DNA from: Escherichia coli
GTDB taxonomy: Bacteria > Pseudomonadota > Gammaproteobacteria > Enterobacterales > Enterobacteriaceae
Strand: one strand, 5' to 3'
DNA length: 64,000 nt
Assembly (NCBI RefSeq): GCF_048403405.1
Contig: NZ_CP183129.1
Made by a program: the position numbers. Shown here one piece after another: positions 48,901-51,900 of this stretch; position 1 is the first letter of the stretch, and the number at the start of each line of letters is the position of its first letter.

Positions 48901-51900
48901 TGCTGTTGAGCGCATGGGGATTGTTCGATTTCTGGAACTGGCTGCAAAACGGTGCGGGGCAGAAAACTGTAGATATCCTGATCCGTATCGCACTCATTCT
49001 TTTCTTCTCGGCGGTTGGCTGGACAGTGCTCGCCAGTTTGATCGAAAACCGGCTGGCTTCGGATATTCATGGCCGCCCGCTACCCAGCGCCCGCACGCGT
49101 ACCCTGCTTACGCTGTTTCGTAACGCGCTGGCGGTGATTATCAGTACCATCACCATCATGATTGTGTTGTCGGAAATCGGCGTCAATATCGCGCCATTGC
49201 TGGCAGGTGCCGGTGCATTGGGGCTGGCTATCTCTTTTGGTTCGCAAACGCTGGTGAAAGATATTATCACCGGGGTATTTATTCAGTTTGAAAACGGCAT
49301 GAACACTGGAGATTTGGTGACTATCGGGCCGTTGACCGGCACTGTGGAACGGATGTCGATTCGCTCCGTGGGCGTGCGCCAGGATACCGGGGCGTATCAC
49401 ATCATTCCGTGGTCTTCGATAACCACCTTTGCTAACTTTGTCCGCGGCATTGGTTCGGTAGTGGCAAATTATGATGTTGATCGCCATGAAGATGCTGATA
49501 AAGCCAATCAGGCACTGAAAGATGCGGTAGCGGAATTAATGGAAAACGAAGAAATTCGCGGGTTGATTATCGGTGAACCGAACTTTGCCGGGATTGTCGG
49601 CTTAAGCAATACCGCATTTACACTGCGTGTTTCGTTCACCACGCTGCCACTCAAACAGTGGACGGTCCGCTTTGCCCTCGACAGCCAGGTGAAAAAACAT
49701 TTCGACCTGGCGGGTGTTCGCGCGCCGGTACAGACTTATCAGGTGCTGCCAGCTCCGGGCGCGGCCCCGGCTGAACCGCTGCCGCCGGGGGAGCCAACGC
49801 TTTAACGTTGGCGATTGACAAAACGGCGGCGCTGCTCGTCGTTCATAAAGGTCCAGGCAATAAAGCGACTCTGCTTTTGCCCCTGGGCCATCTCTTTTTA
49901 ACCACCTTCACCGCGCCAACGTCCGTCAGGGCACGATACAATGGCGGTAAGTTTTCACCACGAGATACCAGTGAGGTAAACCACATCACCTGCTTCGCGA
50001 AGCCTTTGCTCTCTTCAATCATCTTTTTGATAAAAGCGACTTCACCGCCTTCACACCACAACTCCTGTTGCTGACCACCAAAGTTCAGTGCATCGTCTTT
50101 GTTTAGCCCCAGGTTACGGCGTTTACGTTCACTACCTGCCCGTGCCGCAGCGGCGGAATCGTGGAATGGCGGGTTACACAAGGTCGCGTCGTATTGCTCG
50201 TTTTTATGGATGATGCCGTTAAAAATCGCCCCACTCTCTTTTTGCCGACGCAGACGAATGGCGCGGTTAAGCCCCGGATTAGCACTGATGATCGCCTGCG
50301 CACTGCTTAACGCCTGGCTGCTGGTTTCACTACCGGTAAAACGCCAGCCATATTCATGTACGCCAATCAGCGGGTAAATACAGTTCGCACCAACGCCAAT
50401 ATCCAGAATGCTGGCATTCGCTGGAATTGTTCCGCTTGCTTCTGCCAGTAAATCGGCAAGGTGATGAATATAATCCGCCCGGCCCGGTACTGGTGGGCAG
50501 AGAAAACCGTCGGGGATATCCCAGTTCGCTACGGCGTAAAAATGGGCCAGCAACGCCTTATTGAGCGCCTTCACCGCCAGCGGATTGGCAAAGTCTACGC
50601 TTTGCTCCCCGGCGGGTGTAAGCGTGAGGAATTGCCTGAGTTCAGGGTTGACCTGACAAAGCGTGGCGAGATCGTAGCGGCTGTGATGACGGTTGCGCGG
50701 ATGCAACCCCGGTTTCTGGGCGGACATAGCATTCTCCTTTAAGCAGCGGCGTAAGATACCCGCATAACGCGACAGGGTAAATATCTGGCTGCGTTTATCA
50801 TTCCCAAAAACCTTAACATGACTATGGTTTATGGCAATTCACCATAAAAATCAGCATCATGCATGTTATTGATTTGTCTTATTTTGTAAAAATATATCGT
50901 TCAAAAAACAAGCACATCTCTGTCAATTTTTTGCGTCATTTTCATCGCCCAGGCGACCTACACTTATCAGGCACTACCCGTTGTATTTATGAGGATGTCA
51001 TTATGAAAAAGTGCCTCACACTACTGATTGCCACCGTCCTGAGCGGAATCTCTCTCACGGCTTATGCCGCGCAACCGATGAGTAACCTGGACAGCGGTCA
51101 GCTACGGCCCGCCGGTACCGTTTCGGCAACTGGCGCATCAAACCTAAGCGATCTGGAGGATAAACTGGCAGAAAAAGCGCGCGAACAAGGCGCGAAAGGT
51201 TATGTCATTAATTCCGCGGGCGGAAATGACCAGATGTTCGGTACTGCAACCATCTACAAATAACCCCACCAACGTAACTGCATTCGCCTCTGGATGCAGT
51301 TTTCGCCTGTTTTGTAATCAAAAAACATCAAATATGAACACAATGTAAATAAATGTATTTCTTTTTCGCGCAATGGGTGATAGAAAATCGCGCCAAGTGA
51401 TAATGCTTATCAAAATTATTATCACTTGCACGAACGCTATCACGAGATTAACAGTGGCATCGCATCCGCAGAGAGGCTTTCTCGTGGCAGTGAAAATTTC
51501 AACATATAAGAAAAAGTCACCTGCAAAATGGAAAACAATCGCAATTTCCCTGCCAGACAATTTCATTCGCTCACGTTCTTTGCCGGTCTTTGTATTGGCA
51601 TCACGCCTGTGGCTCAGGCACTCGCCGCCGAAGGGCAAGCAAACGCGGATGACACGCTGGTTGTCGAAGCATCAACGCCTTCGCTTTATGCGCCACAACA
51701 ATCTGCTGATCCGAAATTCTCGCGTCCGGTAGCGGATACTACCCGCACGATGACGGTGATTTCTGAACAAGTGATTAAAGATCAGGGCGCAACCAACCTT
51801 ACCGACGCGCTCAAAAACGTCCCCGGCGTGGGTGCGTTTTTTGCGGGTGAGAACGGTAACTCCACCACTGGCGACGCCATTTATATGCGTGGTGCCGATA

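Follow-up and report, generated by a model that had tools for sequence, protein, structure and literature searches.

We analysed a stretch of 64,000 nucleotides from the Escherichia coli contig NZ_CP183129.1 (assembly GCF_048403405.1), hereafter the window, with emphasis on the 3' end of rlmF and its convergent neighbor ybiO. The rlmF reading frame as found in the window occupies 49843..50727 on the minus strand and was assigned by the list of open reading frames, the translation, the match to PF05971 and synteny, the gene order mcbA-rlmF-ybiO corresponding to the orthologous position annotated in K-12, TUM14771, MS 69-1 and TUM1226. It comprises 294 codons plus a stop codon: 278 native codons, whose translation contains SAM-binding motif I and the catalytic NPPF motif (LCNPPFH) and ends with ...GAVKVVKK at residue 278, and 16 codons read out of frame. 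The frame changes within a run of five A on the coding strand (T5 on the plus strand, 49895..49899), one A below A6, which spans codons K277-K278; the coding strand reads GTG GTT AAA AAG AGA TGG CCC, with the five A at 49899-49895. The 16 foreign codons follow at 49846..49893 (minus strand) and terminate at a new stop codon at 49843-49845. A remnant of the native C-terminus, 30 codons and a TAA, persists out of frame on the same strand at 49802..49894. Its sequence is identical to that of the relatives, and as the alignment reveals no further change in this tail, the deletion must have happened very recently if it happened at all.

The ybiO gene, which encodes a mechanosensitive channel, is intact on the plus strand (47580..49805), converges on rlmF and shows zero differences between the window and TUM1226. 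The first-pass annotation of this region had proposed that the longer rlmF frame ends with TAA at 49802-49804 and would overlap the ybiO stop codon at 49803-49805. This is indeed the case: the native rlmF stop and the ybiO stop overlap tail-to-tail by 4 nt in the palindrome TTAA, and the same overlap is annotated in intact relatives (K-12, TUM14771, MS 69-1 and others). The truncated rlmF frame stops 38 nt short of the ybiO stop, and the stop-stop overlap is lost. On recheck, the coordinates and translations given in that annotation for the rlmF frame, for both frames and for their stops were all borne out. It had also placed the frame switch at the T5 run, one base short of the longer frame, and had suggested an alignment to K-12 rlmF; this alignment yielded GTT AAA AAA GAG (A6) in K-12 versus A5 in the window, in agreement with the proposed missing base.

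The six-base run is the state found in nearly all genomes covered. Alignments gave A6 (GTT AAA AAA GAG) in K-12 MG1655, TUM1226 and TUM14771, and overall in K-12 and six out of six near-identical relatives, leaving the window as the only sequence with A5. A 1.2-kb query retrieved six complete genomes at 99.9% identity, each of which differed by exactly one gap. With a 76-nt query across the site, exact matches to the A5 allele were found in only 2 of 5,404 complete E. coli genomes, and any frameshift in the rlmF A-run was present in only three of about 5,400, two of these three being plainly noisy assemblies; the length of the tract is thus invariant in >99.9% of genomes. The A5 run of the window is a one-gap departure from more than 5,400 complete E. 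coli genomes and no chance reading noise.

The consequences for the protein were assessed with the Methyltransf_10 profile PF05971 (gathering cut-off 23 bits) and with homologs of known structure. The window product scored 475.8 bits compared to 514.4 bits for an intact relative, a loss of 38.6 bits, and the match covered residues 3-285 (profile positions 2-288 of 299) in the window product versus residues 3-296 (2-299 of 299) in intact RlmF. The catalytic domain is incomplete, profile positions 289-299 being absent, which correspond approximately to RlmF residues 286-296 and to β7 of METTL16. The crystal-structure homologs METTL16 and PsiM align through RlmF residues 295-297, with FIAWTF opposite ALAWSF, and the lost RlmF segment pairs with METTL16 ...EFCQGRTMRWALAWSF, i.e. 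with the β6-β7 loop and β7. In METTL16, the conserved SAM-methyltransferase core comprises residues 79-288 and forms a 3214576 sheet whose last strand is the antiparallel β7, and R279 and R282 line the RNA groove (PMC5871880). Judged by these alignments, the frameshift at codon 279 removes the β6-β7 loop, β7 and the Arg-rich tail. If real, the A5 allele would in all likelihood behave as a null or a strong hypomorph, because the final conserved strand of the catalytic Rossmann fold lies in the part that is replaced. The modification made by RlmF is m6A1618, according to the passages of PMC7056703 and PMC3384335 that cite Sergiev et al. 2008. Ribosome assembly and growth rate are unaffected by a single rlmF deletion, and phage T5 is supported somewhat less well by an rlmF rlmJ double mutant (PMC11619597). 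Loss of RlmF is tolerable and the gene is dispensable.

The whole window was compared with six near-identical complete genomes (TUM14771, MS 69-1, 4621, GN02461, TUM1226 and isolate 68). Exactly four differences separate the window from TUM1226 across all 64 kb, each of them private to the window. Apart from the rlmF site, these are a 1-bp homopolymer deletion in gsiA (20579..20581, minus strand; T4 to T3 on the coding strand), which falls near codon 36, shortly before the first Walker A motif; the loss of 13 bp (GCTTGCCAGCACT) from dinG near codon 126 of 716, with the deletion junction at 59510..59511 (minus strand); and the sole private substitution at position 9208, where the window has G and all six relatives have A, in an intergenic position 12 nt upstream of rimO that adjoins a T6 run. 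The gsiA deletion was absent from all 5,425 complete genomes searched and the dinG deletion from all 5,334, and the dinG junction had no match in a collection of species-representative genomes. Likewise, neither the GsiA fragments (56, 92 and 567 aa) nor the DinG fragments (N-terminal, 140 and 173 aa; C-terminal, 593 aa) had exact matches in a collection of 15 billion proteins. Among themselves, the six relatives are separated by 9 SNP events and 2 indel events, with zero 1-bp homopolymer changes; the 1 SNP and 3 indels of the window compared with the 9 SNPs and 2 indels of the relatives gave p = 0.08 (Fisher exact test, one-sided). The clade to which the window belongs is well sampled. Its clade-specific SopA-like effector gene was present in 234 collection blocks, and the neighbors in the places shown were a DinG of 716 aa and an RlmF of 308 aa. 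In the window, each of the 21 homopolymers of ≥7 nt has the length seen in the relatives. This speaks only weakly against an under-call in rlmF, since a length-scaled error model would, by our own rough estimate, leave all of them unchanged with a probability of about 0.5-0.6. An error model in which long homopolymers are systematically affected was accordingly set aside as uninformative: no run of ≥7 nt is altered and the statistical power of the test is low.

The 294-residue product is present in public collections. It is identical to WP_001448092.1 (also EJE71886.1 and others), occurs in NCBI, UniRef and Logan on 42 contigs, and is known from at least three backgrounds via two DNA alleles, GTT-A5-G and GTA-A5-G. 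The rlmF frameshift is an ordinary, already catalogued lesion. Each of the ten public carriers that we examined is about 2% divergent from the window, which points to independent origins, and most of them contain many other 1-bp homopolymer deletions, including A4 to A3 and G4 to G3 changes resembling the gsiA event. Among RefSeq complete genomes, only B1.H1.18 and B1.H1.1 share the exact A5 allele of the window, and in these rlmF, ybiO, dps, rhtA and mntR are all flagged as 'frameshifted' within about 12 kb. In JL05 and L017, the rlmF A-run frameshift is isolated and the neighborhood is otherwise clean.

Small deletions at the dinG locus form a subject of their own. Isolate 68, which belongs to the window's own clade, has also lost 13 bp from dinG, but at another place, about 220 bp upstream of the window's deletion. 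The deletion of isolate 68 (ATCTGGCGATTGA, dinG nt 146-158) is found in identical form in at least three backgrounds, a 14-bp deletion lies at the same place in ECONIH6, and the bases at nt 146-158 are missing from 18 of 5,421 genomes. The ST131 strain MB1341 lacks 5 bp at the site deleted in the window, and the right-hand ends of the two deletions coincide. The truncated DinG products were located on 27, 5 and 1 contigs, some of them in Logan and ENA assemblies whose contigs do not exceed 165 kb, and their presence in assemblies of short-read scale and in Logan indicates that the dinG deletions are real mutations and not long-read artefacts. The two sites are flanked alike, by CGGC[13](G)AGCCC, and the microhomology at the junctions amounts to only 1 nt. 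Hairpins were considered as a cause of the hotspots and rejected, since either DNA strand, folded at either site, gave z-scores of -0.45 to -1.48. A literature search on the 13-bp dinG deletion returned nothing relevant. Taken together, dinG contains two real and recurrent small-deletion hotspots (13-bp and 5-bp) in unrelated clinical E. coli isolates, and the dinG lesion of the window is probably genuine.

The first-pass annotation had offered two readings of the rlmF site, a C-terminally altered methyltransferase or a homopolymer miscall. Both survive the analysis, yet the former wording understates the damage, the last conserved Rossmann strand being replaced. We consider a consensus error to be the best explanation, with a probability of roughly 60%, and infer that the chromosome has the sixth A which the consensus lacks. 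According to this explanation, the true gene would be an intact rlmF of 308 codons and the A5 run an A6 homopolymer that the assembly consensus records one base too short; RlmF would be made normally and methylate A1618 of the 23S rRNA, and the rlmF and ybiO stops would share TTAA, as they do in all relatives. An under-call is supported by the kind of change, a 1-bp alteration of a mononucleotide run with respect to all near-identical genomes, by the association of the identical A5 allele elsewhere with noisy, indel-ridden assemblies, and by the further private, deletion-biased indels of the window, which at low density are out of proportion to the SNPs (gsiA T4 to T3 and the 13-bp dinG deletion versus one SNP in 64 kb). 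Three frame-breaks in 64 kb, each in a conserved gene, extrapolate to about 200 per genome, a figure that is not plausible in a natural isolate separated from its neighbor by about 1 SNP per 64 kb. Such a density of frame-breaks is typical of consensus sequences from long reads only, 454 or Ion Torrent. Against an under-call, the window's two one-base events per 64 kb are 10-50x below the indel density of clearly noisy assemblies, and a 13-bp deletion is an untypical platform error that coincides with one of the two dinG sites at which other isolates carry real small deletions; since the deletions are real elsewhere, at least one of the three lesions of the window is probably genuine. It is possible, if doubtful, that the rlmF lesion is genuine as well and reflects a very recent slippage mutation in the A6 run by which residues 279-308 were exchanged for 16 unrelated ones. 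The protein would then probably be misfolded or unable to bind rRNA and A1618 would remain unmethylated, a state tolerated since rlmF is dispensable; beyond that, the only change would be that ribosomes on rlmF terminate 38 nt short of the ybiO stop codon. In line with a real mutation, the lost segment includes the end of both PF05971 and the METTL16 core, single rlmF deletions are harmless to growth rate and ribosome assembly (PMC11619597), the 42 contigs and at least three backgrounds with the 294-residue product include the clean contexts of JL05 and L017, and the dinG deletion of the window falls on a hotspot of real deletions, making at least one real private knockout likely. However, three private frame-breaking deletions versus one private SNP are far from a normal indel to SNP ratio, the A5 allele is unique within a well-sampled clade, and the few complete genomes with any frameshift in this run, three of about 5,400, include two that are plainly noisy. 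A mismatch-repair mutator would be expected to accumulate several-fold more transitions than indels. Overall, the context favors a miscall without proving it.

Two further explanations accept the deletion as real and assign it a cause or a use. It is very unlikely that all three private deletions are genuine and connected. The isolate would then belong to a group of clinical E. coli with repeated dinG knockouts at the two hotspots, and loss of the FANCJ/XPD-like helicase DinG would promote small deletions such as those in gsiA and rlmF, with the rlmF A5 allele being null, or leaky through partial rescue by -1 slippage. A mutator effect of this kind is at odds with isolate 68, which also has a 13-bp dinG deletion and shows no extra indels in 50 kb. 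Still less credible is the idea that the frameshift is bypassed or used, be it by a -1 ribosomal slip on AAA-AAG, by transcriptional slippage or by a phase-variable A-run switch. The deletion generates GUU AAA AAG AGA, and a -1 shift past AAG would read GAG AUG GCC and restore the native frame (...VVKK-EMAQ...). No tetramer shifts more readily in E. coli than A_AA.G, for which 5.6% is attained only when a strong pseudoknot is present (PMC4066793), and an irregular hairpin of -14 to -16.5 kcal/mol is predicted to begin 4-7 nt downstream of the AAG. However, this hairpin is no better than those of shuffled sequences (z = -1.13 and -0.32), tetramers without a stimulator shift at about 0.15% versus a background of 0.11%, and by the rules of the same study U_AA.A_AA.G is not a canonical X_XXZ_ZZN heptamer and contains only the A_AA.G tetramer (PMC4066793). 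Moreover, the out-of-frame arrangement is not conserved, all relatives and >99.9% of E. coli genomes being in frame. We thus rejected a programmed -1 frameshift site, given the mere tetramer, a hairpin within chance and no conservation, and -1 slippage at the A5 site would provide trace leakiness at most. Neither transcriptional slippage nor phase variation operates efficiently on runs as short as 5-6 nt. A phase-variable (contingency) homopolymer was likewise rejected on the grounds that the tract has only 6 nt and deviates in 3 of about 5,400 genomes, two of them noisy assemblies.

The biological weight of the rlmF lesion is small, as rlmF is dispensable and the 294-residue product already catalogued; the dinG hotspots are more interesting than the rlmF lesion itself. 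The lesion matters for annotation hygiene: one and the same change is recorded as 'frameshifted' in RefSeq for B1.H1.18 yet as a normal protein (WP_001448092.1) in JL05. Deprived of the final strand of its catalytic fold, the truncated protein should not be counted as a functional RlmF. If the A5 run were real, the strain would be a natural m6A1618-null, which would be mildly useful given that losing m6A from rRNA is reported to affect infection by phage T5 (PMC11619597).

Comparison with known systems places the locus as follows. With dnaX-type -1 frameshift sites, in which A_AAA_AAG is combined with an upstream SD-like element and a downstream hairpin, the window sequence shares AAA AAG read in frame. 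In contrast to these sites, rlmF lacks the canonical heptamer, a significant stimulatory structure and a conserved out-of-frame arrangement, and is not a member of this class. The methyltransferase domain of human METTL16 (PDB 6B91, 6DU4 and 2H00) and the fungal PsiM share a homologous Methyltransf_10 fold (E = 1e-38), and their alignment covers the segment lost in the window, which assigns it to the conserved seven-stranded sheet; their substrates (U6 snRNA and MAT2A mRNA for METTL16, norbaeocystin for PsiM) differ from that of RlmF, and they serve here for fold placement only. WP_001448092.1, an ordinary CDS in E. coli JL05 according to PGAP, is identical in protein sequence to the window product, whereas its carriers are about 2% divergent from the window, several having GTA-AAAAA-G instead of GTT-AAAAA-G, and PGAP marks the gene as 'frameshifted' in B1.H1.18. 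The closest counterpart is RlmF of E. coli K-12 (YbiN, b0807; 23S rRNA m6A1618 methyltransferase, 308 aa), which is encoded at the same locus in the same synteny and is essentially identical over the first 278 residues; compared to it, the window sequence lacks one A of the A6 run at codons 277-278, replaces the last 30 residues by 16 unrelated ones and has given up the TTAA stop-stop overlap with ybiO.

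In the window, the dinG gene (about 57750-59887, minus strand) has lost 13 bp, with the junction at 59510/59511; this private deletion is absent from the six near-identical complete genomes used as relatives (TUM14771, MS 69-1, 4621, GN02461, TUM1226 and isolate 68). Two hotspots of small deletions were found within the first 400 nt of dinG, both having similar flanks, i.e. CGGC[13](G)AGCCC. At nt 378-390, the site deleted in the window, ST131 MB1341 has a 5-bp deletion sharing the right boundary of the window's deletion. At nt 146-158, an identical 13-bp deletion is present in isolate 68 (from the window's clade), the 2020S05-013 series and 21AR0807, together with a 14-bp deletion in ECONIH6; this hotspot is affected in 18 of 5,421 genomes. 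Because truncated dinG products also occur in short-read-scale and Logan assemblies, the hotspot deletions are real mutations. No mechanism for recurrent small deletions at these hotspots was found. Between rhlE and dinG, the window's clade has ybiA swapped for two genes: a SopA-like gene (60171-62183, minus strand, 670 aa, PF13981/PF13979, annotated 'type III effector'), whose exact protein turns up in the public collection in 234 blocks, and a hypothetical gene (62488-64000, plus strand, 561 aa) which extends past the window end.

Two further private differences were identified. In gsiA (about 18818-20688, minus strand), a 1-bp deletion at 20579-20581 shortens a T4 run to T3 in the coding strand at approximately codon 36, directly before the first Walker A motif, and splits the gene into an N-terminal fragment of 56 codons and a remainder of 567 codons; this deletion was seen in 0 of 5,425 complete E. 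coli genomes. The sole private substitution across the 64 kb is intergenic at 9208 (G in the window vs A in 6/6 relatives); it directly adjoins a T6 run and precedes the rimO start by 12 nt.

Deletion-biased 1-bp homopolymer errors are abundant in several public 'complete' or chromosome-scale assemblies (L002, L014, L010, L012, L015 and L016), which are suitable as a negative-control error profile: L014 shows 35 indels in 20 kb, and B1.H1.18 (L002, NZ_CP146564.1, 19000-31000) has five frameshifted genes within about 12 kb. The 294-aa RlmF product is annotated inconsistently, PGAP treating it as a normal CDS in JL05 (L030, NZ_CP049936.1, 14212-15096; WP_001448092.1) and as a 'frameshifted' pseudogene in B1.H1.18 (19209-20134). 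Two distinct DNA alleles, GTT-A5-G and GTA-A5-G, yield this product. In several of its carriers with an IS-disrupted fiu, ybiO is broken by a 1-bp difference (GAAGAAAAG to GAAAAAAG) common to L008, L009, L012 and L013 at ~11720. These four loci probably belong to Shigella sonnei-like lineages, so the split ybiO appears to be a pseudogene that was inherited, not noise.
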